Positions 18,529 to 54,032 of a DNA stretch of 64,000 nucleotides are shown here, in pieces (positions within the stretch are counted from its first letter, which is position 1; each line of letters opens with the position of its first letter). The translations under genes and the position numbers were made by a program. The stretch covers positions 114,576,001-114,640,000 of the forward strand of contig CM097885.1 in the NCBI GenBank assembly GCA_044892525.1. Reading direction: 5' to 3'. Under the pieces are notes generated by a model that did no database searches, was not told the DNA's origin, and was given only the letters and a program-made list of their open reading frames with translations. Source of the DNA: Schmidtea polychroa. Taxonomy: Eukaryota.

Positions 18529-20089
18529 ATACTAAAACTATAAATCACAGTGAGGTAGAATATTAAAGCTAGCTAAGAGAGGAAATTGAGGAAGAATAAT
18601 TAAAAATTAGATGATAGAATTAGATTATAGAGAAGAATAAACGAGCTCGTGGTAGATGATAATAAAATTTTAGTGAGAAAGAGAAACAAGAAAGGAAAAT
18701 GAATCAAGAGATAGCGAAAATAAAGAATAAGTGAGAATAATTAACAAAAGGAAGAAAATAATTAAATAATTAAAAGGGATCCCAGTGAAGTAGAAAAGGC
18801 TCTACAGAATTTAATTTTTGTGGTTTAAATCGGGAAATGATTTTTTTTTATTGGTTCCAGAGTAGAACCAAGTGAGGGAAACAGATAAGAAAGGATAGGT
18901 AAAATAGCGACAATAGCGCAAGAGAATTAGGAAAAATGAGGAGGGGTAATTAGCAGCAACGGACAACGACCTATTGATATTATAATTGATAATTATAGAT
19001 AATTGATACGACCATATAGATAATTATTACTACCCCACATAGATAATTTAACATCGACGAAAGTTTGGGATTATGGTTCATTACAACCCACGATATAGGA
19101 ATTGTACATCATTTGAAAATGTCGAAGGTATAAACAGATTAGATAATAATTTTTAAGGCTTCGAAAGTAGAAACGGAGAAATTAGAATTTTTAATAAGTC
19201 TGGAAAGCGGAGACCAATGGGATAAGAATTTTGTTTCAGTTGATTGTTTTGAATGCAGAAACGAACGAGTTAGAAATTTGTAAGGTAAAGAGTGGCAGGT
19301 TAACGAATGATAAGATTGGTAAATGTTTGGGTAGATATATAACAGAAAATAAATGAAATCTCAGTAGAAATGACAAGAAATGAATTGATATTAGATAATC
19401 GGGTAAGAGAGAATGAATGAGAATATAAGAAGAATAATAGAAATTCTAGTTAAGAATGAGTTATAGAAATGACAAGGAATGAGTCAAGTGGAGATGAGAG
19501 GCAATACAAGTACAACTGTGAATATAGTTTCAAACTTAAGGAAAGAAACCGTTAAGTAGAACAATGAACTCAGTCAAGAAAAACAGCAACGATAATAATA
19601 GTTAATGAAAGGAGGAAATATAAAGGGTAACCGATATAGTAAACTCAAAGAAATGATTAAACTGGAAACAACCGAGAACAAAACAAGGACCATAGTAATG
19701 AAGAAAAACTAAGAGGTAATACAAGTTAATGGATAGAGATAACAGAGAGAGATAGTCATTCAAAGCCAAGAAAACCATAGAAACGAGGAAAAAGAACACG
19801 AATTAAAATAAATAAGGATCGAGAAAATTAAGTAGAACATGAGAATAAAGGCGAAAACTAAAGGAACGAGGAAACAAATATTAAGAGATGCCCCAGGAAA
19901 CCAAAACAAAAACATTGCAATTATGTTATATAATATATAAATTATAATTTATAAAGATAATAAACGGTAAGGAGGAGTGATATTTTTCTAGTAAGGTAAA
20001 TCAATCAAGCAAGCTAATAGCCAAGTATCAACAATCAACCGGAATTCATCACCAAATAATTAAGCCAATCGATAATAGAACCAAGTATG

Positions 20090-21754
20090 TCAAACGAAGA
20101 AGAAATGAAAGCTGCAAAGAAAGGAAAACGAACAATCAAATCCAAGCAAACGCAAGAGAGTAAAAAGGAGAAATCAAAGCGACATCTTAAAAACGGAAAG
20201 TCGACCCTCAAAATAGAGTGGTAAAAGGAATTTTAAAACAGTCAGTCGAAAAGTTTAAAACGCCAGTGGAACTTCATGAAAGAGAAAATAATATAAAAGC
20301 AGAAATATTGAAAGACCTTGAAACCTAACTAAAGAAAGAAATCAACGACGGAGAGATAATATGGATATATGAGCGAACAAGCTAGCTGAGATGCAAATCA
20401 GATAAGCATTCTTACAAAACTATGCAGTAACATAACCGAGTATCAATCCGAAATGAAAAGAAAGCAAGAATAAATGTACTACAATACGTTGGAAGCAGAT
20501 CACAAATTGAAAACAACCTAACTAAACAACCACAAGAATGGAACAGCTTACAGATCACAGAGGCCCGAGAAGCAGAAGAAAGATGGAGTAGACGAAAGAG
20601 AAGAAGAGAAGAAGAGTATTGGAGGAGGAGAAAGGAAGAACTGTCGAAAGTTGATATATTGAGACTAACTACCAATGACAGCCAGAGGGAAAAGATAGAA
20701 GAAATGTGTGAAAGACGACAAAGAAAAGTAATACAAATCAATATGATGAAAGTGATACCGAGCAACAAACTGGAATCACAAAGAACTCTGGACTCAAGAG
20801 TGGAAAGTGAAACAATCGAAAGAATAGAAAATGTAATATTGGACCATCAAAATATCAGAATCATTGGGAACAATCGGAGAAATTATAAAAATACGGAAAA
20901 TCAGGCTGATATTACAGCAATCCAAGAGAATCGCATGAGATCAGTCAACAGAAGAGATTGCAACAAATCGAAGACTAACGAAGACCACGAAATTCGAAAT
21001 GGTGAAAATAATGAAAACATCGAGACAGAAGAACGAAGAAAAAAAATGATGAAAGTGAGATTGAACCAAATATCAATAATAAAGTAAACCAGTATTGTAA
21101 CGAATGCCAGCAGCGAGGACACAATGAGCGTAATTGTTCTTTGAATATGATAGGTTGGAATTGTCAGAGAATGAGGCATTGCGAAAAGAAATGTCGTCGT
21201 ATAAAAAGGTGTTACGAATGTAAAAGAACAGGACACTTAATTAACACTGTCCGAATGTGGCAAATCCAGAGAAAAATCAATCACGGAGAAGTACCACTGA
21301 ACCGACCAAGCAATACGCACAGAGAAAAGAATTCAACAGTCAGATAGTAGAAATTGTCAACCTCCAATGTTAATAAAACAACAGTCGACAAACGTACGTC
21401 GAAGTGAAGAAACATGTAAAACTCAACGTATCCGAAGAATTGAGAAGACAATGTATAGAACAAGGTGACATAAATAAAGAATTTGTGATGAAAGAAAAGA
21501 GACGGGATGAATTGATAATGATATGGAGACAAGTTGACGAAAGCAAAACAAAAAAAAATGAAGTACTAAAAACAACGATACTCAGACTAAACGAAGAAGC
21601 AAGGTCAACAGAATTAAGAATCAATGAAATAATGAATAATCGAGAGAAATGCAAAGATATGGCAGCAGAGACACAAATGATGATGGCCAAGGAAAAGAAG
21701 AAGGGTAGTGCAAAGAATGAAGTGGAGAGAAGTGTAGATGAGAGTAATATATAA
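20090..21754 (+). pseudogene. Decayed gag/ORF1-like coiled-coil protein with three CCHC-type zinc knuckles (copy 1)
   Basis: CNECQQRGHNERNC, WNCQRMRHCEKKC, CYECKRTGHL at ~21090-21250; charged coiled-coil segments; multiple stops. Confidence 0.65.
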
Positions 21755-22769
21755 GAAGTGTACATATGTAAAAATTGATGTATAAATAGCAAACCAAATG
21801 TATTAGACGTATAGGTATAAATTGATGTATAATGTAGCAAAGGATCGATGTATAAATAATTAAAATAGAAATGGATCAAGTAATCAGTTGGGAAAAAATT
21901 TGAACCCTTACAATGATAAAGGAGAACAGAGGCTCAAATGAGAAGAAAGAATATAAATCCAAAAGAAAGATAAAAGTGCAGACCCGGAAAGAATGAGTTA
22001 AACGAATATCTAAAAGTAATATCTAATTTGGAACCCCTAAACAAAGAACGGTAAAAGACCCTGATAAATGAGACGAAAGTCACAGACCCAGTGACATTGG
22101 AAACTTAATCAAATCAAGCGAACTTGGACTAAAATCAAAAATAATTCGAGTTACCCGTTAAAGAAAGAAAATCCCTTAATAAGAGCAATACCGTAAACAA
22201 AACCACCAAGAAAAACCAAAAGAAAAATCAATGTGTCAAATCACCCAGTTAAACAAAAATTCCGAAGACCCTTGAGCAAGGTCTGTCATATATTATCAAA
22301 TGATCCAGAAAATCAGAATCCCAGCATAAAAATCCAAAGAGAATCCGGGAAAACAGTCAAACCCCGATAGAAAGAATCCTATGATCTTCAGTAAGTATTA
22401 CGAGCTAAATTATGAAAACCAACAACAGCAATCAAACATGCCTACAAAAACCAGCCTAAAGATTGAAAACCGAACCCAGAAACGAGAAGAAACAACCAAC
22501 TGAAGAATTGATCCAGAAATAAAACTGTTGTTTGTGACTTGACTTGAGTTTGGACACGGTATAAGTATGTGTGTGTATTATGACCAGTCACTGTATGTGG
22601 CAACTGCTTGAATTTTAGCTTAGACCCTTTTCTGATAATTCAATTTTAACATGTCTTAAACTGTTATAGTATGTTTATGGGTTAATGGAAATGTAATAGA
22701 CTATGATCTGGGAAATTCATATGTCTAACAGAATTGCGGGACGCAATTTTAACGGGTCCCGGAGTGATT

Positions 22770-24793
22770 TGTTGGGCTAGAACCGAGAATCGAGAGCATG
22801 TTTTAATGAATCAAAAATAAATAACATAAAAATCGCACCAAGTTATATAAAAACACCAAAAACTAAAGTACATAACACACGGATGATAAATAAGACCCGG
22901 TTAATAAAATAAAGGAACGCAAATAAAGGTCACAATCACTAACACCATTAGGAGAAATATCGCATTCGGAATATCTAACAACTAAAAATTAAAATAATAA
23001 TAAATAAAATAATGGGTAATAAATTAATTAATAATATGGAAAACTTTTAAATATATAAATATAAAATTTAAAATAAATTACCTAGTAAACTGGTAAAATA
23101 ATAAAAAGTAGAATAAAAGTAGTAGAATTAGATAAACCATAAAATTTATAAAACTAAATTGTTTAATGAAAACTAAAAATAAAACCAACAAAATTATTTA
23201 AATTAAAAATTTAAATTATAAAACTTATAAAACCAAATTGTTTAAATTAATGAAACTAAAGTAAAATTAACTGAACTTATTTAAATTATAAAACTTGTAA
23301 AACTAAATAAAAATTAGCAAAAACTATTTAAATTATAGAATTTATAAAAATAAATCTTAAAAATTAATAAAAATTAGAATTTTGATTAATTAAATTAATT
23401 AAATTAAAAAATAAATAATTGCACACATTCATGCATGCATGCAAAAATTAATCAGAATCGCCTCGTATTCTAATTGGATATAACAGCAGAGAATGCGTAG
23501 GCGTATAATTCAATCAGTATAAATACTGAGTGAAATTTCATTTAAAAAAAATGGAGAAGTCACGCTCAACTGGTTAACTGAAAATCGCTACAGTAGACAA
23601 TGCAAATCCCATGGCTCTCGATTGTCAGTTTTATGCATGCGTGGTGAGGTAAATTTGATTTTTGTTAATTTTATGTTAATGATTTATATGTTAATTTTAT
23701 GTTAAAATTTATATGAAATAATAGGTAATTTTTAGGATTTAGTAATTGAATTGGTTTGGCTAATTTTGCGTCTGTTCATTTTAATGTTAACTTGGAATAA
23801 TATTTTAATAGGAGTAAGATGAGTTTGATTTTATTAATGACAAATTTATATGATGTAAAATGTAATTTGTAGGATTGAATAAAATTTTTAATTGGATTTG
23901 TTTTTAATTGACTCCGGAGTCTTGTTTATGATACTTTTTGAATAATATTATAATTTAGGTTGGGTTTTTCTTGATATTTATGTGTCGATGGTCTGGGCTG
24001 GGGCAAGGTTTGTGGACGGGCGGCACTACGTGCTGTTGGTCGGCAGATATTTCGCCAGTTGAGTCCATCGGCGTAGGGAATATAGATAGGGATATGAACG
24101 GTTAGGGGGGAATCAATTTTCGATAGTTTAGGGCCCTATTTAGAGTTAGAAAGTATAGGACTTTTATTTTCATAGATATTTCTGAGTTAGGAGAAATATT
24201 AGAATAGTTATGAACTGTTGTCGGTAGAGGAAGTAGGTTTAGGCAATTTTATAGAAACCACGAATAGTTAAGATATTCGATCGTTCAGGATTAGGAATAC
24301 AGGCAGATCCCTGCTCAAATTTTCATGAGAAGTGTGGAAACATGTTTATTAACTTGTGAATAAGGGCCAATCCCTGCTCAAATTTTTCAAAGGATAATTT
24401 AGATATTGTAGGGGGTATATAACAATAATTATTAGATGGACAATAAGGGCGGATCCCTGCGCAAAAATTTTACAAGGGAACAGTTGGAAATACCCTTAAT
24501 TGAGGACCACAAATGATCTAAAACAGCATACATAGTGAATAATGACGTAAGACCTTCTATCGGCAGTCTAGAACCCGAAAAGAAAATACAATGGGGAGTA
24601 GTTTTAGTAATAGAGCTCACCTGCTCATTGTTTTTTCGCCTTTGTGTACAGTACAAACATGGTCGTCACCATGGGTACACAAATGGTTTAAATTGCAATA
24701 GTCATGGAGGTGCTTAGGAAAGAGTCGAGTGAATATCTAAATTACCCCTGACGTATTTAAAATATAAAATGGCACACCCCTAAGTAACCAACA
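22770..24793 (+). repeat. LTR (2024 bp), variant of the 1547-bp LTR
   Basis: TGTTGGGCT start and GTAACCAACA end; last ~500 bp nearly identical to 46610-47118; 5' part diverged and longer. Confidence 0.85.
23473..23529 (+). promoter_or_regulatory. LTR promoter: ATTGG (CCAAT) box and TATA box
   Basis: ATTGG about 40 nt upstream of TCAGTATAAATACTGA; the same spacing is kept in the otherwise diverged LTRs at 46114-46161 and 59455-59502. Confidence 0.6.
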
Positions 24794-26505: not shown

Positions 26506-27200
26506 ATGTTTCAGAAATTCGTAATTTATATTTATCTTTGTATATTATAAAATATTTGAACTTTTAGGTTAAATTGTGTTTCAGCAGTTCTTTTAGAACA
26601 ATGGTTAATTATTCATAATTTTTTAATAAAAATATTTTTAAGAGTTCTAAATCGTGGAAAGTAACTCGCTTAAACCATGTTGCAATTGCTGTTCCTGATT
26701 TAGAAAAGGCAACCAAGTTTTTCCGTGATACTTTTGGTGCCAAAGTCAGCAAACCAGAGGTTTTTTAGATTCTAGTTTTTTTTATTATTTTTCTAAATTA
26801 CAATATAAATTTACTTGTCTTCTATGATTTTAATTACAGATTCGCCTATGAAGTTTAAATTGTTAAATTATAATTATAATTAATTGAATATTGCATATCA
26901 ACTAGGAATTATGTAAAAACAATCTAAGTTTATTAATTATAAACATAATTTTCTTATTTTAAAGTTGTAGTTAATATAATTATAAATATTTTATGTTTTC
27001 TTGTAATTATGTATGAAGATGTTTTATAATTTTAACAGTTCTATCCCAAATTTAATATAGTTTATATTCGTTATTCTACTTTTCAATTTTATTGCTGATG
27101 GTCTTGTTTTTCCAGCTTTTTTTAATTTTTAGTATTTTAGCCACAGAAAGAACACGGAGTTTACACAGTCTTTGTTGAATTAGAAAATGCCAAAATTGAG
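26506..27200 (+). CDS. MCEE: Methylmalonyl-CoA epimerase, exons 1-4 (26506-26520, 26568-26603, 26643-26759, 27141-27200)
   Basis: All phase-0 GT-AG joins give MFQKFVKLCFSSSFRTMSSKSWKVTRLNHVAIAVPDLEKATKFFRDTFGAKVSKPEPQKEHGVYTVFVELENAKIE: a transit-peptide-like leader plus the LNHVAIAVPDL VOC-fold motif. Exons 1-2 are less certain than 3-4. Confidence 0.93.
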
Positions 27201-27480
27201 GTAATTTTTTATTGAATTATTACAAATCTTATTGAATCTGTGTTAGCTAATCCAGGGATTTTAAAATTGACTGTAGATATTAAACTTATTTATTACTTCT
27301 ACCAGAAGATTTCACTTAGAAATAATAGTTTATTTCAGGAACTACGTTGAATACTCATCCGTACTTTTTAGTGACAGTAAATAAATAGATTAAAATTAAA
27401 TAGATTAAAATATTTTTTACCGATGTCTAACAATAAAATAAGATAAACATTACAAGCTTTGTGATACCCAGTGCAAATCC

Positions 27481-27526
27481 CAATAGTAGACTAGTTTCGA
27501 GCTTTTGGCTCTCATCAGTATTATAC
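27481..27526 (-). ncRNA. Minimal type I hammerhead ribozyme
   Basis: Minus strand: ATAATA CTGATGA GAGC CAAAA GCTC GAAA CTAGTC TACTAT. Complete core, 4-bp stem II, palindromic ACUAGU stem III, GUC cleavage triplet (+27489-27491), stem I with 5 of 6 pairs. Confidence 0.85.
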
Positions 27527-28653
27527 AGGAGACGTGAAGATTTCTCTTCGCGCCAGGTAAGTATACAATATTGCTGATTCAACTCTATTGCATACTTTAC
27601 CTGCTACACTGGAAATCACATCACTTGCAAATTCGCTAAATCACAGAATAAAAATATCTGCAAACTTGTAAACATGGCGTATGAAAAATCATATTCGCCT
27701 CTGGAGACACCGTCATATACAGAAACTGTTTACAAGTGCATCCGTAAACCTTTAGCATTTTTAACGGTATTTAATGAAAATGGAAGGATGTTTTTACCTT
27801 TGGAATTGTATAAAATCTGTTTTCCCACTTAGTTGCACAAATATTGTTTAATGTGAAATATTTTTATGTTTGTTTAACTAAATAGATCTAAAACCAAAAT
27901 TTCTATCCAACTAGACAACTCAAAATAACAATAATCATTAACCCCATGCCATCGTGAGACCAGACATAAGATTATTTTGGTTAACCGTATTGAAATGTAT
28001 AATTTGGAGTCACAAATGGAATAAATCATCTAATGAGTACACTTTGACCCTAAACGGAAGTTTTCAATATATACAATTTTTGTGTAGTTCATCCTAAAAA
28101 TCATAACAAGGTGAAGAAAATTAAATGCATTCACAAAAAGTTGAAATGTAATTTGGGATTTTATTGAATTACCTACCAGTTAGAATTTCTGCCTTAAAAT
28201 TAATAGAAATTTGAAAAAAAGATTAAAATAAAAACTGAAAATTATTGTATAGTTATGTGTAATATCGATTCCATGATTCTGTCTTCCAATTGTAAATTAT
28301 GAATTTTGTCATTTTAAGATGTTAGAATATTTATTGTCAATGTTTTTCATTATATTTTATTATTATTTATCAAATGCAAAATAATTAATTATTTAAAATT
28401 TTTAAGAAAGCTCAAACTGTCGAAATATATCGTAAAACGAATGTTCAAGTGGCGCTTTCTTGTAATGAAATTGTTATCATGTCTGTTTAATTATTTATTT
28501 AAAAATCATATTTCATTCTTAATTTCATTTCGAAAAATTATATTTTTATAACACATAAACCTCCCTGAAATTAAAAATTCCGGGTCTTTGTGAAATTTTG
28601 GCATGGAAGAAATAGGACTCTGAAACAAATCGAAAAACGTAATAAAAATAACA

Positions 28654-28930
28654 ATGAATAATAAATTTTCAGATGTATTTCCTTGTGAAAACCTAGACAA
28701 GACAAAAAACAATTATGTAGTATTTGATGATTATGTAAATGATAAAAATCAACAAGTAATGAAATCATACTTAACAAGATCTCGACATACAAATTGTTGG
28801 TTGTTGTATTTATCTTTCACAAAAGTATTTTGATTTACCTAGAAGATCAATTCGTGGAAATTCTAATTTTTATATATTCTTTGAATTGAATAAACGTGAT
28901 CAGTTTATACTGATTTATTTTCTACCTTGA
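28654..28930 (+). pseudogene. Maverick/Polinton A: A32/FtsK-like packaging ATPase, C-terminal part
   Basis: YVVFDDYVNDKNQQVMKSYLTRSRHTNC..LYL(fs)SQKYFDLPRRSIRGNSNFYIFF (Walker B plus the RH / Q.YF..P..IR.N motifs). Confidence 0.8.
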
Positions 28931-29479
28931 TTGAAAAACAGGAATTTAATTAATTTAACAAGAACAACCAATAATTGATGATATATTGGCAACTCCAAAT
29001 ACAAGGACATTTAAATTGAATGTAAATTTAGATTCATTTTCTGCTCCAAAAAATTTACCAAAATTAATTGAAGCAACTTAAATAGGAGATAAAGAAGGAA
29101 TAACATTGTTGATGAATGATGATAAATATATAATTACTTTGGAACAAGATTCATTTTATATTTTCTATCCCCAAAAAGATGTGAAGTATTTCCTATCACC
29201 TGGTTTATTATTATGCATTGAAGGAAATGTATTTGATGTTGATGGAAGCTTACAAGTTTCAAAAAATGAAATTGGAATACATTTTAAATTGGTTAAAGAT
29301 TTAAAAAATTTTGTTAGAATTTACTTATTAAATAAAATTAAATGTTGCTTAAGAACGTTTGGAAAAATTAGAGCTAGAAAAAGAATTGGAATTCAAAGAT
29401 TCAGAAGGAGAACAAGAATCAGAACTACAACCAGAATTTGAAAAAAGTAAAAATATTAAAAAAATTAAAACTGAATAAA

Positions 29480-29650
29480 AGGGAAAAGGTTTGTCAAGTA
29501 TATTTTATTTTCCAGATAATCCAATTTCACTATTTGAAAATTTGATTAAATTATTAGCAGCAACATGATAATACTTATAATCAAGTTAATGCAATTTTAC
29601 AAAGACTTGGAACTTAAATTAATAACAAGTGACAAGTATAAAAAAGATTT
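29480..29650 (+). pseudogene. Maverick A small conserved ORF remnant upstream of the major capsid gene
   Basis: GKGLSSIFYFPDNPISLFENLIKLLAA...NQVNAILQRL, a pattern recalled from invertebrate Maverick small ORFs. Confidence 0.45.
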
Positions 29651-29699
29651 TAAAAAGATTCTTCAAAATAGATAATAAAACTAAAATTTAACAATAAAA

Positions 29700-30891
29700 A
29701 TGGCATCAAGTTTTGATTTTAACAAGACCTTTTTATTTTAATCATGATATCCGAAAACAAGATTACATGGAAATATTCCCATCAACAGCAAGTGCAAAAG
29801 CATTAAATAATGGAGGTAAAATATATTAAAACATTAATCAATCTTCAACCTCTCTAGATATTTCTAATTCACTTTAGTATTTCAAGGTTAAAATAACTGG
29901 AAATGAAGTAACTGATAAATTTACATTTTAACACAATTGGATACTAAATATTTTTACTATAAAATTAGGACCATCAGAATTAGAAAGAATAGATCGTCCT
30001 GGTCCAACTTCTTCAATTTTAAATTTTATCATGGCAGATTCAGATTTTTAAAAACAACATGGAGAATTTAGTGGATGGATGTTGGTGATGGAGTAGTAGA
30101 AAATAAAGGTTATAAAAAACGAGTTGAATTATACAAGCGGAATGTGTTTGAAGGAATGTTTCTATTAAAAACTCTATTTGGATTCTTTCAAAATTACAAT
30201 AGATTAATATATTTAATACCATTTGAACTTTCAATGACATTGAATAATGATTTCAAAAGTTGTTTATTCGAAACAGTTGTAAATGCAGCAACTAAAATAA
30301 AATTTGAAAGTTTAACACTTGGTTTCATCAATAACTTATAATTCAAAACTAGAAACTAGAATAATGGATAGAATTAATATTGAAAAACCTATAACAGTAA
30401 AATTTTTTCAAAGAACTAGGTATAGTTGGAAACCAACATTTTTAAATTCTAGACCTCGTTATATTTTTATTGGGTTTAAAGAAGAAACACCGGATTTTAC
30501 AAAGAATAATTCAAAATTCATTCAATCATTTGGAGGAGATAAAGAGATTCATTCTCTAAGGGTTCAATTAAATACAACTTGGTATCCTTTAGATCCCATG
30601 AATTTTAATAGTAAAAATAATTAACAAGCAAAACCATATCAGGCATATATAAATTCTTGTAAATCATGTGGAGTAGATCCACAAACAAATTTGATTAATT
30701 TTAAAAATTTATATTCTATATTTGGTTTTGATGTATCTGATTAAGATGAAAAATTATCTATTAATGGTGTTAATGTTAAGATTGATATTGAAAAGAATAC
30801 AGGTTTTACAGCAAAATGTTTTTGTGTAATTTTGACAGAGCGAGAAGTAGAAATTCAATTGAAAAATGGAAAAATAATTAATATTTTGTAG
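29700..30891 (+). pseudogene. Maverick A major capsid protein (hexon-like, double jelly-roll)
   Basis: LFGFFQNYNRLIY.IPFELSMT, SRPRYIFIGF, LRVQLNTTWYP, FKNLYSIFGFDVS; many in-frame stops. Confidence 0.8.
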
Positions 30892-30962
30892 ATAAAATGT
30901 ATGAAAAATTGGAAAAAATGGTTAATATATTGTCAACAAAATATTCAACGACTTTCTTTTAA

Positions 30963-32744
30963 CACGTTGACTGCCATATGCCCCACCCGCAGTACACAGT
31001 ACATTTTTATACATATGCCACGTGTAACGCCGGCGGTACATACATAATACTACTGAATAATCATGTTTTTCTTGTGGCAGTGGGCTTAAACTGTTTATTT
31101 ATATACAGTGGCACCTTGATAAAAGTAAATTAAGGTTTTTTTGTTATGGTTTACATCTACATTTAGAGGTATAGCTGGAACAAAATGGAGAAAAACGAAA
31201 AGATTACAAACATAAAAATTTTATTTCAAACATAAAAATTCATTAATTTGTATTATAAAAATTAACAAAACAAAAGAACTTCGGTATACATATATGAAAT
31301 ATAATAAAATATAATATAAAATAAAAATTAATGTAATTTATTAAAGCAATTTGTGCATAATGGCGGTTATCCTCACATCCACTGCAAAAAGTTGTAACTC
31401 TTGGTTTTTTTGTTGCTTCTTCTCGTCCTTTCTGCTGTTGCAATTGTTTGTAGCATTCAACACACCTTTTACGTATAACTCTATTTCTGTTGTCTCTGGT
31501 GGTATACGTTTGTATTAAATGCCGTCTAGCTGGTGGACGTTGTACTACACGGATACTGACGAAATTGATGTTTCGCAAAGGGATTCACAAATAGATTTTC
31601 TGAATTCAGCTATTTTTATATTTGGTTTACTTAGTTTGTATAAAATAAGCGCGTTTACAACGGCTATACTCAGAAGGTACTCAAATGCTATCTTATGGTA
31701 CCAGCGAATAGTTCTGCGTAAAGGCGTAAAATAGCTAGCCATCTGGTCAGATAAATCGATACCTGATTTGGCAAAATTATAATCAATTATCATTTGAAGC
31801 TTTATGATATCTTCATTGTTGCGATTTGTTTTGCCAGTTCGAACTTCTGTTAAGTCGTGCTTTGTGCTCAACATAAGAACTTCTCGCTTGTCCCTCCATT
31901 TAGCTACTACAATGCCTGAATTCTCTCGACCTATAACTTCATGCTTTCGGAGTTTAGCATTAGTGACTTCAGTAGGATTACCAATTCGGTTTTTCCTAAG
32001 AGTTCCCAGAAGATGAGTTTGCTGTGTTATCAAGGCATTAGCTAACGACCTAGACGTGTAGAAATTATCAGTAACAATAGTTCTACCGTTATTTAGATAA
32101 GGCGCAGCCAGATCGAGTACAATCTGAGTGCTATGTGTAGCACCTGGTGTTGGTCGTCCTCTTCTGGCCGAATCATCTGTTTTTCCGCAATAAATTTCAC
32201 TTGTATAGGTGTACCTAATTGGATCACAAAGCTTGTAAACTTTAACACCATATTTATGTGCTTTTCCGGGATTATATTGACGAAACATCAGTCTTCCACG
32301 CCAAGGTATCATGCTCTCATCCACAACCAACAGCTCACCTGGTATTTTAGCAGCTATAAATTTTTTTTCCAGGAGTTCAAGCAAATAGGCAACTTTACCC
32401 AAACGATAATTTTGTATGGTATCGTCATCTGCAAAATGAATAAATTTCAGCAATAATTGGAATCTATTTCGGGACATCTGTCTAGGAACAAATGAGTTGA
32501 GGTAAAAGTTAAACCTTACTATAACTAATTATGCAATCGATGATAATTAGAGACTGTGAATTATACCACAAAACATTTTTTTTCAAAAATATAAAAAATA
32601 ACCTGTGTACAGCCGGCGGCACACGCGGCACATAATGAAAACGGTATTTACTAGTTGCCGCGTGTACCGCCGGCTGCCACAGTCTATAATGTACTACGGC
32701 ACCGTAAGAATGTAGTATTTATATATATGGTGGCAGTCAACGTG
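30963..32744 (-). mobile_element. piggyBac transposon, internally deleted (1782 bp)
   Basis: 14-bp TIRs CACGTTGACTGCCA / TGGCAGTCAACGTG; flanks TTAA (30959-30962) and TTAT (32745-32748); GCCGGCGG subterminal repeats at both ends. Confidence 0.92.
31327..32477 (-). pseudogene. piggyBac transposase (PGBD4-like), 5'-truncated, C-terminal cysteine-rich domain frameshifted
   Basis: MSRNRFQLLLKFIHF, VVDESM, QYNPGKAHKYGVK, TDNFYTS, GIDLSDQ (all three catalytic Asp); CVEC...CSGC...LCTNCF in shifted frames. Confidence 0.92.
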
Positions 32745-33139
32745 TTATGTTCAACGCAGTTATTTGTTTCTGAATTTACAAATAAATTTCCTATTCCTTT
32801 ATGCTTGAATAGAAATTATAACTATAAAGTTGTATTGCAATGGTTTAAAGGTTTTAATAATGTTCGCAATGTTACAAGTGAAAATAATAAAATAATAATA
32901 GAATGGGTTTCAAAGAACGGAGTTACACAGTCAAGCTTGGCAAACTTAAAAGAATCAAAAGAAATAATTATACCCCCTGGAGCATATGAATTAAGTAATT
33001 TATTTTCAACAATTAAAATTCTAGTAAAAGATGTTTTGAATGTTAATAAAATGATTTTTCCAAAACAAATGCAAGAATATAAAACATGGTGTGAAAATCA
33101 TAGTGGTTTTGTTTTATAGTTGTAAAAATTATTGATCCA

Positions 33140-33970
33140 AATTTCATTTTATTTTCTGATGATAATGAAACCAGTATAAATTTATAACTTGAACCCTCTG
33201 CTATTTCCTTTTTTTATTTGTTCTATTTCTGTATTATCTTTTTTCCACTTATAATCTTCATCTTTTTCCATCGTGTTTATTATCGCGTCTTCGTGTGCCA
33301 ATAAACATGTACTCTTTGACAACATATCTGCCTGATCAGTACCTTTTCTATACTCTATTTTAATATCCAGACTACTGAGGTAGTAATTCCATGTCTGAAA
33401 TTGCGTTGTTTTTGGTTTCTTTGTGGATAACATAAACGCTTTATGGTTCGTTCTCAAAATGAACCGTTTCCCATATAAATAATGATTGAAGTGTTGACAA
33501 AAACAATAGATTGCCAGCAACTCTTTCCTTGTTATACAATATCCCTTTTCATGATTTCTCACTGCATGAGAACCGTATGCTATAACCTTTTCGCACCCGT
33601 TGTCGTTTTTCTATGAAAATACTGCTCCAATCTTGTCAAAACTCGCATCAGTATCGAAATCCGGAAACTCTAAAATAGGTGAGGACATTAAAGTATTTTT
33701 CATATTTTCGAATGCGATGTTGCATCCGTCAGTCCAAATTAATTTTTTGTTGTTTAACCCACATAGCTCTTCTAAAACTCTTGCCTTTTTTGAGTATTCC
33801 TTTATAAATCTTCTGTAGTAATTGCATATTCCTAGGAAGCTTCTCAGATTCTTAACACATTAAATGATTTAATCGCGTTTAACTTTGATGGGTCCGTCTG
33901 TATTCCATCTTTGTTGATTATATGACCTAAAATTTTGACTTCCTCTTTAAGGATATGGCACTTTTCAGGG
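33140..33970 (-). mobile_element. Ty3/Gypsy RT-RNase H fragment
   Basis: EVKILGHIINKDGIQTDP, FILDTDASFDKIGAV, HEKGYCITRKELL, ADMLS; same clade as 15090-16140 and 60460-60860. Confidence 0.88.
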
Positions 33971-33974
33971 TTTA

Positions 33975-35125
33975 TCCAGGTACGACTGATGTTTTATGTC
34001 ACTATCTTTCAATGTTACACCTTTAGCCTTTTTTGTTTCCTCATCACCCAACAAACTATAACAATTAGGTCTAAGAAAAACTCATTCCTTATATTTAAGA
34101 CCTTTTTTCGCGTCTTTGAACTTTCCAATGACAGAATCAAGGTTCTTACTATATAAGGAATGACAACTATCGTAATTGAAAGTATCTAATAAATTATCTC
34201 GGATCATTGCAGGTAAAAGAACCTCAAGTTTACAGTTAATTACTTCCAGGAAAAAAGAGTCTGTATTAACGATATTAATTTTACAACTAAACTCATTGCG
34301 AAATGTTTCTAAAAAAATTTATATTGTAATTCATACATTCTAAGTTTAGATAGATCAAGTACAGACTGACCAATGTAACTTGGTCTATCTAAATATATAG
34401 AATCTGAATTTAATAAAGCGGCAATTAAATTATCTATTTTAATGGATTTTTTAAAAGTTGGGTTTGAAGAATATTTAACTAATTTACCGTCGGTAGTACA
34501 TAGGCGAAGATTCATTCTTCTCTTTAAATTTCCTACTGTTTTACCATATAAGCTATTATTTAACAATTTATAATAATTTTTGTCTAAATTATTTATGCTT
34601 TTTGCTCTTAATTCAGTATTGGTATCTATGTATTTTTTAAAAATTGGAGATTGCTTAAATCTTACACCCCTATTTACATGTGTTACTTTAACACCAAGTT
34701 CCAAATATAATTTTAATAATCTCCAATGAATCACATAATTAGATTTTGGAAGATGGGTTAATAATAATTTTTCAACCTTTGAACCAGCAGGTTTCATTTT
34801 TTTCAGCAGCTACAGGGAAATCGTCCAACTTATCATGAAGCTCGGAAGGAATTACAACATCAACTTCAAGACAAAGATTCAAGATTTAAATTCCTACATT
34901 CGTCCATTATTAAATCAAATCCGTCAAGAACCCAACTAAATTCACGACAAGGTAATTGTTGACTTAAAGCCCAACCTTAAAGATTATTAATATCTATATA
35001 AAGTAACTCGGTGTTTTCATCGGTTTTTACATAATGTTTATTTACAAAAGTAAGACCGCCTCTTATTCCACCCTCATAATAGCTAAACATTTCATTTTCA
35101 GTTATCAGTTCAATCGGTTCATCTA
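33975..35125 (-). pseudogene. Maverick B protein-primed family B DNA polymerase, catalytic part
   Basis: GGIRGG, LLYIDINNL*GWALSQQLP, YYKLLNNSLYGKT, IVNTDS, GKFKD, LRP..YS, KKAKGV. Confidence 0.92.
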
Positions 35126-35330
35126 ATAGAATCTCATTGGATCAAATGCATATATTTTGTTTGGTTTTACATATATTGCAAGCCAATGTTCACCATTCAG
35201 ATTAGCAGATTGAGTATTTACAATTATTGCTTTGTTGACATCTAAATAAGGTATTTTGTCTAATGGAAAAACACCTTGAAATTCTTTTCCTAGTAATTTT
35301 CTTCCAATAATTTGTATCTGAATAGAACTA
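35125..35330 (-). pseudogene. Maverick B adenain-like cysteine protease, N-terminal half
   Basis: FQGVFPLDKIP...AIIVNTQSANLNGEHWLAIYV...AFDP (catalytic His and Asp); truncated before the catalytic Cys. Confidence 0.85.
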
Positions 35331-35406
35331 AATTAATAAGAATTAAATTATTTAAATTATTTCTTACTTCATATTTGATTAATTGATTTTCTATATTTGG
35401 TTTATA

Positions 35407-36746
35407 TTATACCAAAACAGTACGAGTAGATGTAATTTGAATTTCTTTTTCAAAAACTCCATATACAATTACAGAAACAGCTTCAGTAAGTGAAGATGCA
35501 AATTTAATATCTAATCGTAAATTTCCACTTTGTGGTAACTGACTTTGATGAAGATCAAAATCGGGTGCCAATACAAATTTAAAGAATGGATACTTATTCT
35601 TAAAATCAGACACGGGGATACCACAATTCATATTTTTATTTAGATATCCCATATTTATAACTTGTACTATAGTCATCTTTCTCAAAATCTTGACTATATT
35701 TTTCACGATAATCACTTCCTTTACTTAAAATTATGGACTTGACATGAAAACGATCCACTAAATATTTTACTAGATTGAAATGCAACAAGAATAAATTTAG
35801 TTAATCGTCTATCTCCAAATACTTCTTTATAAAAAGAGGAAGAACCAATAGGTAATGAGAAATCAACAACTTCTTTGCTTCTTAACCACTTAATCTACAC
35901 ATTTATTTTGAATTTTGTCTCAAAAACTTGTTTCTATACGAATATTAGAACTCCTAAGTAAATATGTATAATGTTCGCCCGTCTACGGCACGAGCATGTA
36001 AAATATCATAAGTAACTATAATGTTCGCCCGTCTATGTCACGGGCACGTACATTAAGTGGTTAAAGGATAGATTGCATTTTTTGTAGACAGACCAATTTG
36101 ATATCCTGCCAAAACCGATGGTTCAACACGAACTCTTCTAACCATTAATTTTGCATCTAATAATACAATTTTCGGTTCAATTTTCGCACAAGTTAAACTA
36201 AGTGTTGGATTAAATCTTGTAAATTTAATTTGAACACTAACACCTGGTAGTAAAATATTTAGTTTGATCAAAGAAATCAAATTGAAGTGGGGAACATAAA
36301 GAAAAGGATTTTGATTTTTCAATCCATGTTTTTCTCGTAAGATCTTTGTTAGTATACACCATTCCACCTAAAGATGTTCGTTTAGTATCTCCGTCATAAT
36401 TTATAAGTGTGTCAATTAATGCTTTGTGGGCAAATCTATCATTTGATCCTTCAACTTTGATTGAATTAAAAATTAATTCAACATCTTTAAAAAGGGTTTG
36501 GAAGAAATTATTTGGAATTTCTTCTGAATCACCTAAATTATTAACAACTTTCAATTGAATATACAACAAAGTATCATTCAAAACTAAATATTCAGTTTGC
36601 GATCCATTTATGTAAAATTGAATCGAGGATGAACCAGCATCTGTAATTGAATTCCTTGGGTATATATCTTCAAATGCTCCATGTTCAATTACTGCTTGGG
36701 GAGAAGGTCTATCGAAAAGACATAATTCTGATTTAGCGCTAATCAT
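35407..36746 (-). pseudogene. Maverick B major capsid protein (hexon-like), interrupted by a MITE
   Basis: KSELCLFDRPSPQ, IQFYINGSQTEYL.LNDT.LY, NNFFQTLF, SPLQFDFF.Q.KY..PGV, AIYPL|RSKEV across the MITE, GNLRLDIKFA...VIVYG.FE. Confidence 0.88.
35886..36060. mobile_element. piggyBac-type MITE (175 bp)
   Basis: TIR CCACTTAAT / ATTAAGTGG; TTAA on both sides (35882-35885, 36061-36064); internal duplicated ATAATGTTCGCCCGTCTA. Confidence 0.88.
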
Positions 36747-37105
36747 TTTTCAAAGATGGTACCATATCCTTTCATTCTTTTGTTTATATGTTTCTTCATA
36801 ATTTTTCGTCGTGTTCCGCCTTTTTGTTCTTTATCATTTTTAAATACATCGTATATTTTATTAATTACTTCAGGTAAATGTTGCATCACAGCAGGTAATG
36901 AATCCTTATTTTCAGAAATTGCATTTGATTTTAAAGCCGGCAAGATACTAGAATTATTATTTATTACGTCATTAGCTGTTTTCATACCAAAATTTACAAT
37001 TCGTCTAAGAATTGGGAGTGCAAATCTACCTATTGTCTTCAACCAACCGGTTCCATATTGTTTACCAACAAAATATGGTAAATCACCACCCGATTGGTTA
37101 CTACT
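36743..37105 (-). CDS. Maverick B small basic/amphipathic virion protein
   Basis: Open frame NQSGGDLPYFVGKQYGTGWLKTIGRFALPILRRIV...EQKGGTRRK, lying between penton and hexon; resembles Maverick/adintovirus amphipathic core proteins. Confidence 0.65.
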   Translation of the reverse strand, partial: SSNQSGGDLPYFVGKQYGTGWLKTIGRFALPILRRIVNFGMKTANDVINNNSSILPALKSNAISENKDSLPAVMQHLPEVINKIYDVFKNDKEQKGGTRRKIMKKHINKRMKGYGTIFEK

Positions 37106-37134
37106 ATAAAATGTATTATGTCAGGATTACTCAT

Positions 37135-38119
37135 TGATTTTACGAAAATGTAATGTCAAGTATGTTTTATATTCTTTTCCAAATATGTATTTTCTACTAT
37201 AATCTCGTATATTGATTTCTATATTGTTTATATATGAAGACGATACCTGCAAGTACATTGGATTCTTTTCAATTATTTGTACTAAATCATCTTTTTTTAT
37301 GTTTTTCCACCCAAATACATTTCAATAGAGGAACCAATGTATCACCAACAATAATTGGTTCGATAATATTTGTATAGATCATCAATTGTTGATTGCGCTG
37401 TAATATTTCAGGTTCTTTGAAATCAATAATAAGTTTGTCAGTATATGCTTCTACTAATAATCCTAAACTATTAGCTAAAAACTTACTAAATTAAACTTTA
37501 CTGACATCATCATCCATTACAATTTTAACGATTTTTCCTTTTTGAATATCAACAGATTTAAATGTATTTCAGATAAAGTATTGATGTATAATTCATCTTC
37601 GAAATAATGTTCAAATTTTGTTTTTTCAACAACACTTATAATTATACCAAATTGATCAATTGTTTTATCTTCTGTAAATTTAGGTAATTTAATTCGAAAA
37701 TGATCAGTATCACTAATAACCGATACTGATTTTAATCCAGATTTAATAGCATGTTCAAAATCTGGAAACGTTATTTTAAATGGAACATGTGGACAAACAA
37801 CAACCAAATTCTCATATCTTTCAATGAACATGTCAACTTCAGAAGTATTTGTAGGAATTATTACTTCAAAGGTTCGATTTGAATTATTTATTCTAAAATA
37901 TTTAATTTCTTCATCCATCTTTACTTTTTCATATTGTATCAATGAATTACTGTAATAAGGAAAAGTGTTATACACAAAAGTAAAGTCCATGAGAGCTACT
38001 TCCCATTCACCATCCAAGTACATTAGATTTTGAAATTCGACATTAAATTTACTAGCTTCATTATCAGGGAAAATAAGAGGACAACTATTAGAAGGTAAAA
38101 TAATATAAAAATCTTTCAT
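37135..38119 (-). pseudogene. Maverick B minor capsid (penton-like)
   Basis: MKDFYIILPSNS..IFPDNEASKF.V......LDGEWEVAL; C-terminal YVGDTLVPL...IEINIRD in a shifted frame. Confidence 0.85.
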
Positions 38120-38124
38120 AATAT

Positions 38125-39203
38125 TTATTTAATCAATTGATTTTCGGATATCCAAGTTGGAGTTTCATATCCATGCCATTTAACATAGTATTGTTTATAT
38201 TTACCATCTTTTTTGGTTTTTAAAATCTTTTGAATTCTAAATATTGTAGGAGCAGAAATAACTTGGAGTTCTTGTTCATAGAATTTACCAGTGATTGGTT
38301 TGTTTTCATGATCAACTATCACATACATGACAGGATTCTGTTTTTTATCGATTTTCAAAATTTGATATACTTCATCACTCCAATTATTATCAAAGTTTTT
38401 GATGAATGGTGAAGAATTGATTTTACTAATTCTTACATGATCACCAACCTTGTATTTTGGTTTATTGATTTTTTCTATCTTTGTTTGATTTTTAGTAAAA
38501 TCAACAGGTGTTTGTCCTTTGCGGCGAATGATTGTAACTGAAAATAAATTTTGGCAAAACATTTATCCAAGTTTTATTACCTTGATATACAAAATATTTT
38601 TTCAATCGTTCTCTTAAAGTTCGATTAAATCATTCTACATGAGCAGCTTTGAACTGAGAAAATACCGAGTAGTTGTTTATTCCTTTGATAACCTCTTTAA
38701 CTTTGCTGTTATAAAATTCTTTACCTATATCAAATATTTAAAGATTACTTAATTAAATTTAATTACCTAAATCGGTTTGTAAATTAACAGGTTTACCATC
38801 TGCAAACATTTCTTTTATCGCATCAGCTATTTCATTCGCAGATTTAGTTTTTGTAGAACAGCACGAACATATCTATTAATAACATCAATACAAGTCAGAA
38901 TATATTTGTACCCCTTGTTAATTTTTAATAAGGTATCATTTCCATCTAATCCATTTGCCATACATCATTGTTTCCAATTGTTATGTATGGTCTTGTTGGA
39001 AATCGTTTCAACATTGGTTTATTTAAACTTAATGCTAATTGATTAGATAACCATTTCTGAGTTTCTTTCTTTGAATTATTCACTCGTTTTGTTAATTTTT
39101 CTACACCACCAATACCATCTGGATCTTTTGGGTTTGTCCATATTGTCTTGAACTTTTTCTCTTTTATTTTCTCGTTTGTTTTCACCCTTTTCACTTTTTT
39201 CAT
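38125..39203 (-). pseudogene. Maverick B retroviral-like (rve) integrase with chromodomain-like tail
   Basis: GGVEKL...WL...SLNKP..KRFP, WQMD, YILTCIDV, LQTDLG, KYKVGDHVRISK, WSDEVY, FYEQELQ, YYVKWHGY. Confidence 0.9.
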
Positions 39204-39284
39204 TTTTTGTTTTGTGATACTTTTCCTACATTATTACAATACTTTGTCAAAATATTAAAATCTACAATATTTTTATTTGGTAAT

Positions 39285-39681
39285 AAATTTTGTATTGAAA
39301 ATCCCTGGATCAATTGAGACCCCCTCACTATAGTCTGAATAATACTGGCCTTTTTCTATATGGCCTATCTAAATGTATTGAAAAAAAAAGTTTGTATTGA
39401 AAATCCCAGGACCATGGAGACCCCCTCATTATAGTCTGAATAATCCATGCTTTTTCAGTGAAGACTGCCTTTTTCTATTGAAAAAAAAATTTGTATTGAA
39501 AATCCTTGGATCAATTGAAACCCACTCACTACAGTTTGATAAAAAAGAATTTTGTACTAAAAATCCCTGAAAGCAAAGAAAGTGAGTTGGAACAATTGCG
39601 TAGTCAAAAGTTGGAATTATTTACCCCCCCTCCCCCCCCCCCCTCGGGGGTGGTAATTGTTCCAAGGCGCTCCTAACTACT
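39285..39681. repeat. Maverick B probable terminal repeat: ~110-bp subterminal repeats, hairpin and ACTACT end
   Basis: Three copies of TGTATTGAAAATCC(C/T)...GA(G/A)ACCC..TCA(C/T)TA(T/C)AGT; TTGGAACAATT/AATTGTTCCAA inverted pair; ACTACT at 39676-39681 (AGTAGT on the minus strand). Confidence 0.6.
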
Positions 39682-40567
39682 TGCTAGCGTACAATACAAC
39701 AATAATTACCGTGGAGGGTCCAAATAAATCTGTGTTTGTTCAAATGCCGCCAAGTTTATGAATAGTTTATATCTTATAGATAGACTAAAATGTTTAGACT
39801 CAAAAGATTATTCGAAAGAATGGAGAATTTAGAGACCGGTTATAATCTCTCATTTCAATATATACAATCCTTACAAAGTAAATTATATGATGAACTTAAG
39901 CAGTTATGATAATTCCTAATAAACATGATCGTTTGTTTAGAAATATTGAAATATTGAGCAATCAAAGGATCTATAATATAATTGAAAACCATAATTCAAC
40001 TTCGACGATGCCAAACAATGTCGACAAACATGAGTACATCAGAATTTACCCGTTGCTAATTTAAATTATTTCATTGTTTAATGAATGTATTGCTTATTTC
40101 ATTGTCTAAATAAATTTCTTTCATGAAACCTTCAAAGTGACACTTGCGTTACCTTTACATCATTTGCAATGACATCATAAACCTTCGAAAATACCATTGA
40201 AAACCATATAAATGATACCTCATTTACCTTGTTACGATACTTGAAATATTTTTGATTTTTCCTTAAATTTTGTCCATTATTGATGTTTTCATATACAGAC
40301 ACATACATTTCCCGCCCCAAAATATATATTTTCATAAATTTTTACAAAGATTCATATTTCTCCTTTAAATATTTCGAAAATTTCCTTAAATTTAATCCCG
40401 TTTAGTCACTTTATCTGGTTGTTCTTGGATATATGTAATCTGTGGGTAAACATTTCAATGTTTAAATATTTGATCAATATTTTAATTAATGTTTTATCTA
40501 TTTCAATCTAACTTACATTTAGATTTTCAAATTAATTTTTTTTATAAATTAAATATTTTTATTTTAG

Positions 40568-40861
40568 CTTTTGCATCCATTGGGTGATAATAGTCCAATA
40601 CAAAACTTTTTAGACAAGAATAAAGCAGGTGGTATTCATCATATATGTTTAGAAGTAACTGAAATTTTTAAAAATAAGTTTCATGTCTTTATTAAATAGG
40701 TAGATAATATTAAAGAAGCAATGAAAGATTTAAAAGTTCATAATGTGAGAACGCTTGGTGACGAACCAAAGGTTGGGGCTCATGGATTTCCAGTTATATT
40801 TCTTCATCCTAAAGATGTTAATGGTGTTCTTACTGAGTTAGAAGAACCTAAAAAATCATAA
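40568..40861 (+). CDS. MCEE: Methylmalonyl-CoA epimerase, exons 5-6 (40568-40654, 40700-40861)
   Basis: LLHPLGDNSPIQNFLDKNKAGGIHHICLE | VDNIKEAM...PKVGAHGFPVIFLHPKDVNGVLTELEEPKKS*; total protein 158 aa; intron 4 is 27201-40567 (13,367 bp). Confidence 0.95.
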
Positions 40862-45571: not shown

Positions 45572-47118
45572 TGTTGGGCTGAAAACGAGAACTGAGAGTT
45601 TGTTTTAATCGATCGAAAATACCTAACACAAAAACCACAAATTTGAAAATAATCTATGATCAAGATCTAATTTAAAATAAATGAAATAAATTACATCACA
45701 CATTAAGAACCAATAAACCCTGTATAATAGAATAAGAGATAAATAAATTTAACAAAAAATTCAACACTTAAAAATTTAAATAGAAAAATAATAAAATATA
45801 AAATAGAATTAGTTGAAAATTATTTAAACAATATAAAAATAAAATCGTCAAAAATAATAAAATTAGTTAGCATTATATAAATTGTAAAGTTTATAGAATT
45901 AAATGGTTATTTAACTTATTAAATTTAAAGAATAAAAATGTTTAAATTAATAAAAATTAATATAACTCAAATTATTTAAATTATAAAATTTATAAAATTA
46001 AAATTAATAAAAATTAAATAAGAAATTAATTAAATTTAGTGAATTAAAACAAATAAACAATTGCACACACTCATGCATGTATGCAAGACTAATTCAGAAT
46101 TTCTCGCACTCTGATTGGATAGAGTGGCAGCAAATGCATGAAAAATCAGTATAAATACTGATCACAAATTCATTTAAAACTACTACTTTTTCTCTAACAT
46201 CAAAATTTAGTTGTAGCCAGTGAAGCTCTCAGTTTTCGATTTTATGCCCACGTGGATTTGGTAATTTATTTTTTATTGTTGTAGTAATTTTATGAGATGA
46301 TTAAATTTAATATGCAATAAAATTTTTAGTTAAATTTTCTTTTGTTATTTTCTTTTAATTGTTTAATTTCATTTAGTTGCAGATATTAAATAACATTTTT
46401 TATTGTGTTCAATTTTTATACTAACTGATTACGAACGTTAGTACCGCTGAATTGAGATTCAGCATATCATGGTTTGAGGTACCTTCGGGATGCTCAGACT
46501 GGTGGGTATGCTGGTTTTTCAATCGCGCAGCTGGATTGGGCCGGAATGTGGGGGCTTCCTCACGGGTCCTATCGCTGGAAGTACTGTGGTCAAATGTAGG
46601 TTAGGACTGAGAATACAGGCAGATCCCTGCTCAAATTTTTTGAAGTATAACGTAAATATTATGGGAAGCGTGGATTAACTTGAAAATAAGGGCCAATCCC
46701 TGCTCAAATTTTTCAAAGGATAATTTAGATATTGTAGGAAGTGTAGAACAATAATTATTAGCTGGAAAATAAGGGCGGATCCCTGCACAAAATTTTATAA
46801 GAGAACAATTAGAAATACCCGTAATTGAGGACCAACAACGATTCAAAAATAGCATACACAGTGAATAATGACGTAAGACCTTCTATCGGCAGTCTAGAAC
46901 CCGAAAAGAAAATACAATGGGGAGTAGTTTTAGTAATAGAGCTCACCTGCTCATTGTTTTTTCGCCTTTGTGTACAGTACCAACATGGTCGTCACCATGG
47001 GTACACAAATGGTTTAAATTTTAATAGTCATGGAGGTGCTTAGGAAAGAGTCGAACGATTATGATTACCCCTAACGCATTTTAAAATGTAAAAATGATAC
47101 ACCCCTAAGTAACCAACA
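45572..47118 (+). repeat. 5' LTR
   Basis: Direct repeat of 58913-60459; the only differences I noticed are two A/T changes near 45795 / 59135. Confidence 0.95.
46114..46161 (+). promoter_or_regulatory. LTR CCAAT (ATTGG) and TATA boxes
   Basis: ATTGG at 46114 and TCAGTATAAATACTGA at 46146-46161; conserved in the variant LTR. Confidence 0.6.
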
Positions 47119-53849: not shown

Positions 53850-54032
53850 CGAATAATAGATGCGAATAACAGATGCGAATAATAGATACGAATAATAGAT
53901 GCGAATAATAGATGCGAATAATAGATGCGAATAATAGATGCGAATAATAGATGCGAATAATAGATACGAATAATAGATGCGAATAATTGATGCGAATAAT
54001 AGATGTGAATAACAGATGCGAATAATAGATGC
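53850..54032 (+). repeat. 13-bp minisatellite (CGAATAATAGATG) x~14
   Basis: Tandem copies; only about 2 units at the homologous site 18050-18080. Confidence 0.95.

Follow-up and report, generated by a model that had tools for sequence, protein, structure and literature searches.

The window analysed here, 64,000 nt of Schmidtea polychroa DNA without any N (GCA_044892525.1, CM097885.1, forward strand, 114,576,001-114,640,000), contains a host gene for methylmalonyl-CoA epimerase, the exons of which match PDB 3RMU (E 2e-8 and 1e-14) and share a single reading frame on both sides of a large intron. As the original prediction had it, two opposed capsid modules do lie in this one intron (27201-40567): a forward-strand module (family A, 28572-33171) and a reverse-strand module (family B, 33974-39681) converge on a Gypsy RT/RNase H fragment at 33170-33977. 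Every gene of both modules is broken, and the locus encodes no working viral protein set. Family C, named in the list, is the intact sister family of A; L-numbers denote loci fetched from elsewhere in the genome.

26643..26759, +, host methylmalonyl-CoA epimerase exon; Pfam Glyoxalase E 3.8e-7, PDB 3RMU E 2.2e-8
27141..27200, +, host exon upstream of the large intron; AG/GT borders, reading frame resumes at 40568
27201..40567, +, putative GT-AG intron of 13.4 kb enclosing all transposon pieces; splice predicted from the reading frame
27378..27765, unstranded, high-copy short repeat lacking Polinton coding sequence; 92-97% at 39 other places, 40 scored
28572..28990, +, rear portion (Walker B side) of the family A packaging ATPase, frameshifted; from residue 144 on, 48-59% to the ATPase of family C
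28981..29672, +, two small broken family A ORFs; common to other A copies, 66-91%
29700..30891, +, family A major capsid gene with stops and frameshifts; Pfam PF21738 (DJR-like) E 1.8e-10, 36-46% to family C capsid
30899..30962, +, 5' portion of the family A penton; 75% to copy L017, continuous with the remainder in L037
30963..32744, -, piggyBac, 1.8 kb, 14-bp inverted ends, TTAA at left and TTAT at right; Pfam DDE_Tnp_1_7 E 2e-63
32768..33105, +, truncated middle portion of the family A penton; 82% to L037, 35% to family C penton
33104..33171, +, 68-bp scrap of a fibre-like gene; 91% to L038:1505-1572, which lies within the stretch matching that gene
33170..33977, -, internal Gypsy RT/RNase H fragment without LTR; RT_RNaseH_2 E 2e-23, deletion-type joints on both sides
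33974..35126, -, family B PolB, internal piece of ~390 codons; PF03175 E 4e-9, 39% to family C PolB
35124..35401, -, front portion of the adenovirus-type protease of family B; Peptidase_C5 E 0.0017, 87% to a B copy
35407..36749, -, major capsid gene of family B, with frameshifts and an interruption; 81-93% to its open counterpart in B copies
35886..36060, unstranded, 175-bp insertion in the B capsid gene, 9-bp inverted ends, TTAA duplication; missing from B copies
36743..37129, -, small amphipathic/basic family B ORF between penton and capsid; 92% to a B copy
37130..38128, -, family B penton-like gene fusing two tandem paralogues; overlapping matches to both paralogues of B copies
38125..39230, -, family B integrase with chromodomain, frameshifted; Chromo E 2.6e-4, rve E 1e-8 on a B copy
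39269..39681, -, left terminal repeat of family B, which starts AGTAGT and contains 100-bp subrepeats; tandem repeat, 75-80% to both B-copy ends
39682..40400, unstranded, older repeat, likely accessory sequence from a third Polinton family that is B-like; 67-81% at 39 other places
40568..40654, +, host exon downstream of the large intron; AG/GT borders and frame
40700..40861, +, final host coding exon; PDB 3RMU E 1.2e-14

The piggyBac element, the 175-bp TTAA insertion, the fibre-gene scrap and the third Polinton relic had been overlooked in the original prediction.

Family A

The predicted content of the forward module, comprising part of an ATPase, small ORFs, a major capsid gene and a penton, stands except for the start of the penton frame: piggyBac interrupts the penton gene, and the apparent ORF begins in sequence that piggyBac supplies. 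The ATPase has no front part bearing Walker A, and DNA matches of the window to other A copies begin at 28572; the family A ATPase gave no match to that of B. The family C ATPase matches Pox_A32. The 68-bp scrap derives from a fibre-like gene that is located downstream in another A copy (L038). Upstream of A, where a search for a left terminal inverted repeat before 28650 had been proposed, neither a terminus nor a target duplication was found, the region holding only weak AT-rich matches of 40-50 bp (28195-28242).

Genome searches, in which the best 28-150 candidates were scored, returned no whole or terminus-bounded A copy, and 11 of the 12 closest matches to the A capsid carry stops; the full gene set of family A is thus assembled from separate decayed copies. 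Among 14 A neighbourhoods, three have their own integrase (81-85% among themselves and 65-77% to that of family C, with no DNA match to B), two their own protease and five decayed C-type PolB pieces. These PolB pieces (63-82% to family C PolB, 66-84% to each other) are not firmly assignable to A, as they resemble family C about as closely as one another.

Family B

All that had been predicted of the reverse module is present, from terminal repeat, integrase and penton-like gene through amphipathic ORF and major capsid to protease and PolB. The window copy derives by deletion from a family of high copy number, retaining the left end alone and lacking the ATPase, which has been deleted. Its PolB comprises ~390 of ~1,400 codons and its protease ends ahead of the catalytic cysteine region, while its integrase is 78-95% identical to that of a B copy. 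The terminal repeat is joined to the integrase by a deletion at 39287, and the deletion point (39287-39295) coincides with the start of the match in 27 of 27 other B places scored. A second B-type terminal repeat was not found in 27201-34000, nor did the six bases outside the B terminus recur there, though deletion could have erased the second copy. An assignment of the PolB to A, with the true joint at 35125, was excluded by 87-90% DNA identity to the PolB of five of five B copies, against 39% to family C. The 37130-38128 gene, which had no match in Pfam, is putatively penton-like by its position and motifs.

Elsewhere, family B is complete. All five fetched copies span AGTAGGTAG to CTACCTACT over 16.2-17.9 kb with matching 6-bp target duplications, and each carries an ATPase (Pox_A32, E 8e-7), integrase (PF00665, rve, E 1.3e-8 on L001), two penton-like genes, capsid, protease (Peptidase_C5, E 1.4e-5 on a B copy) and a long PolB frame. 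None (0/5) matched a capsid, penton, ATPase or protease of the A or C type. The 1,165-aa PolB frame of L004 did not match PF03175 at E 0.01, while the family C PolB did (E 7e-15). The family also carries a TBP-like gene, a RING gene and a small ORF with a pX domain (PF05829, E 3e-6).

To the right of B lies the relic at 39682-40400, other copies of which have B-type genes within ~2 kb at four of seven fetched places, and ~3 kb away in the random locus L066. Assignment of this flank to A was rejected, since A-type genes occurred near the repeat at one of the seven places and B-type genes at four.

The two capsids and relation to known systems

The two hexons had been described as sharing no obvious similarity. 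They are, however, distant homologues: with the family C capsid used in place of the broken A gene, the two show 20% identity across 359 columns at a probability of 98.3. The B capsid sequence matched nothing in Pfam or PDB; the fold predicted for the open capsid of a B copy (pLDDT 91) retrieved double-jelly-roll capsids in Foldseek, with PBCV-1 at E 1e-14. This capsid may be of the Beta class of adintoviruses, to judge from motif likeness.

In gene content (pPolB, rve integrase, packaging ATPase, adenovirus-type protease, double-jelly-roll capsid, penton-like gene), and in terminal inverted repeats starting AGT with a 6-bp target duplication, the B copies resemble Polintons/Mavericks (polintoviruses), as characterized in PMC4028283, PMC10748475 and PMC8097293. 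The window, unlike a typical member, holds truncated pieces of two families alone; decay is described in PMC8097293 as the usual state of most genomic copies. Among the classes outlined in PMC8502044, A and C recall the Mayetiola-class module of Alpha adintoviruses, as both share the PF21738 capsid and C additionally a PF03175 PolB. Family C further encodes a PLA2-like domain (PF08398, E 2e-9), in a region that also aligns in two A copies; this domain lies in the frame that precedes the integrase core, with a weak pX match in another ORF. Family C is thus unlike the PLA2X layout of PMC8502044, and is set beside the Mayetiola class by description. Family B, with a PF03175-matching PolB piece, a capsid of just 20% likeness to the A/C type, a pX small ORF and an amphipathic ORF, recalls an Alpha-PolB adintovirus (PMC8502044) with a putative Terrapene-class (Beta) module. 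However, B differs from Terrapene-class adintoviruses in its TBP-like gene, RING gene and tandem penton-like genes. The same source gives GasderminX and Cupiennin genes as marks of the Terrapene-class module and an N-terminal OTU-like domain as a feature of the Alpha adintovirus PolB (pfam03175 class); N-terminal PolB frames had no match in Pfam.

Origin of the pile

The intron very probably holds the broken remains of two separate Polinton families, likely inserted independently and likely joined by deletion. Of the two origins first put forward, the arrival of two different endogenous viruses within the same intron is accordingly supported, as family B is complete without A and the pieces match their own families. 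The other, whereby what survives was once a single composite Polinton whose two virion modules shared ATPase, integrase, protease and PolB, is extremely unlikely. It draws on the observation that the surviving enzyme pieces sum to one each, on the proposal (PMC8502044) that Polinton lineages exchange modules, and on the presence of B-type genes near 9-10 of 28 A stretches. However, each of the five bounded B copies holds an ATPase of its own and none holds A-type genes, integrase and protease of their own occur in A copies, the window has a single terminus, with no second terminus or target duplication found in 27201-34000, and A and B differ in their divergence from sister copies. The sum of one each thus holds, but of fragments: deletions within the copies in the window account for the seemingly single and complete gene set. 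As for whether A and B occur intact only apart, each with its own enzymes, this is borne out for B (5/5); for A it largely holds, extending to integrase and protease, and not to a whole copy or a firm PolB. The composite account is already largely refuted, and the bolder form of it, in which the locus is the fossil of a once-inserted hybrid that captures the proposed adintovirus module swap, is equally improbable. A limited literature search, which is not proof of absence, found no report of a two-capsid Polinton.

The Gypsy junctions, which have overlaps of 4 bp and 2 bp, are spanned by the window alone among the candidates scored (40 of 421 and 40 of 326). This uniqueness among 40 scored candidates each speaks against a composite element and would also fit a mis-assembly joining unrelated repeats. 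An assembly error is nevertheless scarcely credible, as the window is free of N, the host exons on either side share one frame, the joints have short shared words, and the pieces show their own decay and target-duplicated insertions.

The proximity of A to B is at the random rate. B-type genes lie beside A in 10 of 28 stretches, one of which (L021) reflects A's own integrase scoring best to B, compared with 11 of 40 random 10-kb stretches, all from four large contigs (Fisher p 0.60); any Polinton genes occur in 17 of the 40. Where an A fragment does lie near a B-like element (L027/L028, L029/L030), the A breakpoints are others and repeat arrays lie between. It might be supposed that B targeted older Polinton sequence, so that mixed piles would form regularly and allow modules to be exchanged: the B end in the window adjoins the third Polinton relic, two B copies lie inside the PolB and integrase of a related family, and the chromodomain of the B integrase could favour repeat-rich chromatin. 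However, B left ends lie within Polinton sequence at two of 17 sites, below the background of 19-26% among 635 control tiles (binomial p for enrichment 0.86 and 0.95; the test leaves out 8 of 25 B copies, for which no left terminus was found), and B is not in excess near A, which makes targeting very improbable. Clustering of B near A, or aiming at Polintons, as suggested by the 9-10 of 28, was thus rejected once random stretches and left flanks had been compared.

The pile is likely a chance product of a genome crowded with Polintons. In the order suggested by sequence identities, rather than by an empty site, the old B-like relic and family A (67-91% to sister copies) would have come first, followed by family B (87-97%) and the Gypsy element. 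Further inserts may have entered, piggyBac into the A penton and the small TTAA element into the B capsid. Later deletions, the joints of which carry short shared words, would have cost B its right end, the ATPase block and the greater part of its PolB, and would also have removed both Gypsy ends together with the integrase, protease and PolB of A. The host would have tolerated the pile because it is presumably removed with the intron by splicing.

Significance

Decayed, nested transposons in an intron are ordinary, and the locus as found matters little; about one in four random 10-kb stretches of this genome carries B-type genes. A true two-capsid element, if real, would reveal how Polinton lineages swap virion modules, but the evidence points away from one. 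The locus serves rather as a caution that deletion can yield complementary gene sets in repeat piles. Expansion of Mavericks in planarians is reported in 10.64898/2025.12.11.693146 and PMC8532177. Of more use is a by-product of the analysis, a Polinton load measured at 16-19% of sampled bases (bootstrap 8-28%), far above the low fraction given as typical in PMC10748475, with at least three capsid-bearing Polinton families in the genome.

Layout of the locus

It is very probable that the locus holds two separate Polinton families, A and B, which entered one intron independently and were later cut by deletions, the presence of one enzyme of each kind being coincidental. The exons on either side code for methylmalonyl-CoA epimerase (PDB 3RMU match, E 2e-8 and 1e-14), and the proposal of two modules facing each other in one host intron was borne out, with A on the forward strand, B on the reverse and the epimerase exons outside.

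Features of the locus (window positions)
27201-40567: predicted GT-AG intron of the epimerase gene, its splice proposed from sequence; the reading frame runs on across it
28572-33171 (+): block A, pieces of family A (six-frame reading, Pfam)
30963-32744: piggyBac splitting penton A (DDE_Tnp_1_7, E 2e-63; 14-bp inverted ends)
33170-33977: Gypsy RT/RNase H piece on which blocks A and B converge (six-frame reading, Pfam)
33974-39681 (-): block B, pieces of family B (six-frame reading, Pfam)

All viral genes in the window are broken. Alignment of the A ATPase to that of a relative begins only at residue 144, and the Walker A motif is therefore missing; the B protease stops ahead of the catalytic cysteine region, and B PolB retains ~390 of ~1,400 codons. 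Neither the piggyBac in penton A nor the 175-bp TTAA element that interrupts capsid B was in the original gene list. Block A was also shortened by deletion, as window 33104-33171 (68 bases) matches the downstream fibre-like gene of another A copy, L038, at 91%.

Families B and A elsewhere in the genome

The 781 Mb assembly (1,012 contigs) was searched with both blocks, and each family has relatives elsewhere. With block B the best 28 of 11,010 candidates were scored; apart from the window itself these are 27 places, each with a match that begins at window 39287-39295. Five copies retrieved with both flanks begin with AGTAGGTAG and end with CTACCTACT, measure 16.2-17.9 kb between matching 6-bp duplications, and all carry ATPase, integrase, two penton-like genes, capsid, protease and PolB; at E 0.001, none matches the A pieces, or the capsid, penton, ATPase or protease of family C, a sister family of A with intact genes. 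Family B is thus complete without A, which argues against a single hybrid Polinton whose two capsid modules share one enzyme set. In the window copy, the ATPase block was lost with the DNA between the terminal repeat and 39287, which a deletion removed, the two penton-like genes are fused into one, and the protease is joined to mid-PolB at 35126. This PolB belongs to B, since its identity is 87-90% to the PolB genes of those five and 92-94% at 39 further places.

A TBP-like ORF (Pfam TBP, E 2.6e-16; L040:9590-10000 (-), L111-L114) occurs in all five bounded copies of family B and is deleted from the window copy. Family B regions (L003:2246-4286 and 6405-7550; L004:2-3496) include a tandem pair of penton-like genes, some copies have a RING-finger gene (E 2e-5), and PolB itself contains a weak match of endonuclease VII-like type (E 0.003). 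Palindromic elements (L101/L102, L103/L104, L105/L106, L107/L108) carry a head-to-head pair of B-type PolB genes and lack every other reference gene, with arms 99.1-99.9% alike in all four fetched and 6-bp target duplications in 3/3 checked (9.4-11.7 kb); in L101/L102 both frames are open over 1,214 codons. Separately, one stretch that contains Gypsy sequence (L109/L110) forms a long inverted repeat with 98% identity across 6.5 kb.

Elsewhere in the genome, block A has matches of 69-91% (best 40 of 1,298 candidates scored). Stops interrupt 11 of the 12 closest capsid matches; the other 137 non-self matches (best 150 scored) are to family C, at 43-46% identity and mostly in open frames, marking it as a high-copy sister family (L014, L039). 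In family C a PLA2-like domain lies in the reading frame that precedes the integrase core. Fourteen A neighbourhoods were fetched as 28 stretches of 10 kb. Integrase lies upstream of ATPase in three, these integrases being 81-85% identical to one another and 65-77% to family C and not matching B at the DNA level, and protease follows penton in two. Judged by these sequences, family A has an integrase and protease of its own in other copies, a further point against the hybrid. However, no whole A copy was found among the best-scored matches and 14 neighbourhoods, and decayed C-type PolB pieces (5/14) are about equally close to family C and to one another; both observations count against our reading.

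The two capsids and known systems

The A capsid piece matches PF21738 (E 1.8e-10). The B capsid, modelled from an open gene of a B copy with 77 homologues (pLDDT 91, pTM 0.88), resembles the double-jelly-roll capsids of PBCV-1, iridovirus and virophage (best E 1e-14) and also matches adomavirus LO7 models; presumably it resembles the non-Alpha class of adintovirus virion module. When the family C capsid is used as a proxy for the damaged A gene (36-46% identity), the C and B profiles can be aligned across 359 columns, with 20% identity and a probability of 98.3. The two capsid types noted are real; rather than unrelated, they are distant homologues of two lineages. For adintoviruses, PMC8502044 describes two classes of virion module and exchange between them. 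PF21738, PF03175 and the PLA2-like domain make A and C consistent with the Alpha class. In their genes, termini and 6-bp duplications the elements agree with Polintons/Mavericks as presented in PMC4028283, PMC8097293 and PMC10748475. Searches of the Polinton/Maverick literature on two-capsid and nested-insertion topics listed no report of a two-capsid Polinton.

Junctions, neighbourhood and a possible sequence of events

The A-Gypsy and Gypsy-B junctions are spanned at no other place (best 40 of 421 and 40 of 326 candidates); at these joints the flanking sequences share 4 and 2 bases, and the Gypsy ends are both internal, with the LTR absent. The left terminal repeat sought upstream of 28650 was not found; 27200-33200 holds no second B-type terminus, and the 6 bases outside the B end do not recur within 27201-34000. 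On the right, B adjoins an older repeat (67-81% to other places), likely a third Polinton relic, with B-type genes within ~2 kb at 4/7 fetched places.

As a random control, 40 stretches of 10 kb were sampled from the four large contigs, with the fourth set at 90 Mb and the small ones excluded. Polinton genes occur in 17 (B-type 11, C-type 6), and Polintons make up 16% of the 397,744 sampled bases by protein matches and 19% with DNA matches (bootstrap 8-28%). Linkage of B to A was rejected, B-type genes being present in 10/28 A stretches vs 11/40 random ones (Fisher p 0.60). Targeting of Polinton sequence by B was likewise rejected: among the 17 of 25 B copies that gave a left terminus (the 8 without one excluded), 2 left flanks held Polinton sequence vs 19-26% of 635 control tiles. 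Since the neighbour rate equals random and left flanks fall below control, neither linkage nor targeting is indicated.

With junctions confined to this locus among the candidates scored, no second terminus and no excess of B near A, the hybrid element is scarcely credible. Under independent integration into the same intron, A and the third relic would have preceded B, as their lower identity to sister copies suggests; deletions would then have removed DNA between A, Gypsy and B. Deletions with short shared words and later TTAA insertions are present. The core set noted is real in its pieces and is very unlikely to be the shared set of a single element; one enzyme of each kind would reflect coincident gene losses. 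The locus is a collection of real Polinton pieces of ordinary cause.

Elsewhere in the window (23100-24740 and 45780-47060; 15000-23000 and 50000-59400), blocks recur ~22.3-22.6 kb apart at 72-96% and tandem arrays match one another; a single large element of LTR type is probably present there in several copies. A host-like ORF of 428 codons with a WW domain (61654-62940 (+); E 4e-6) may resemble CEP164.
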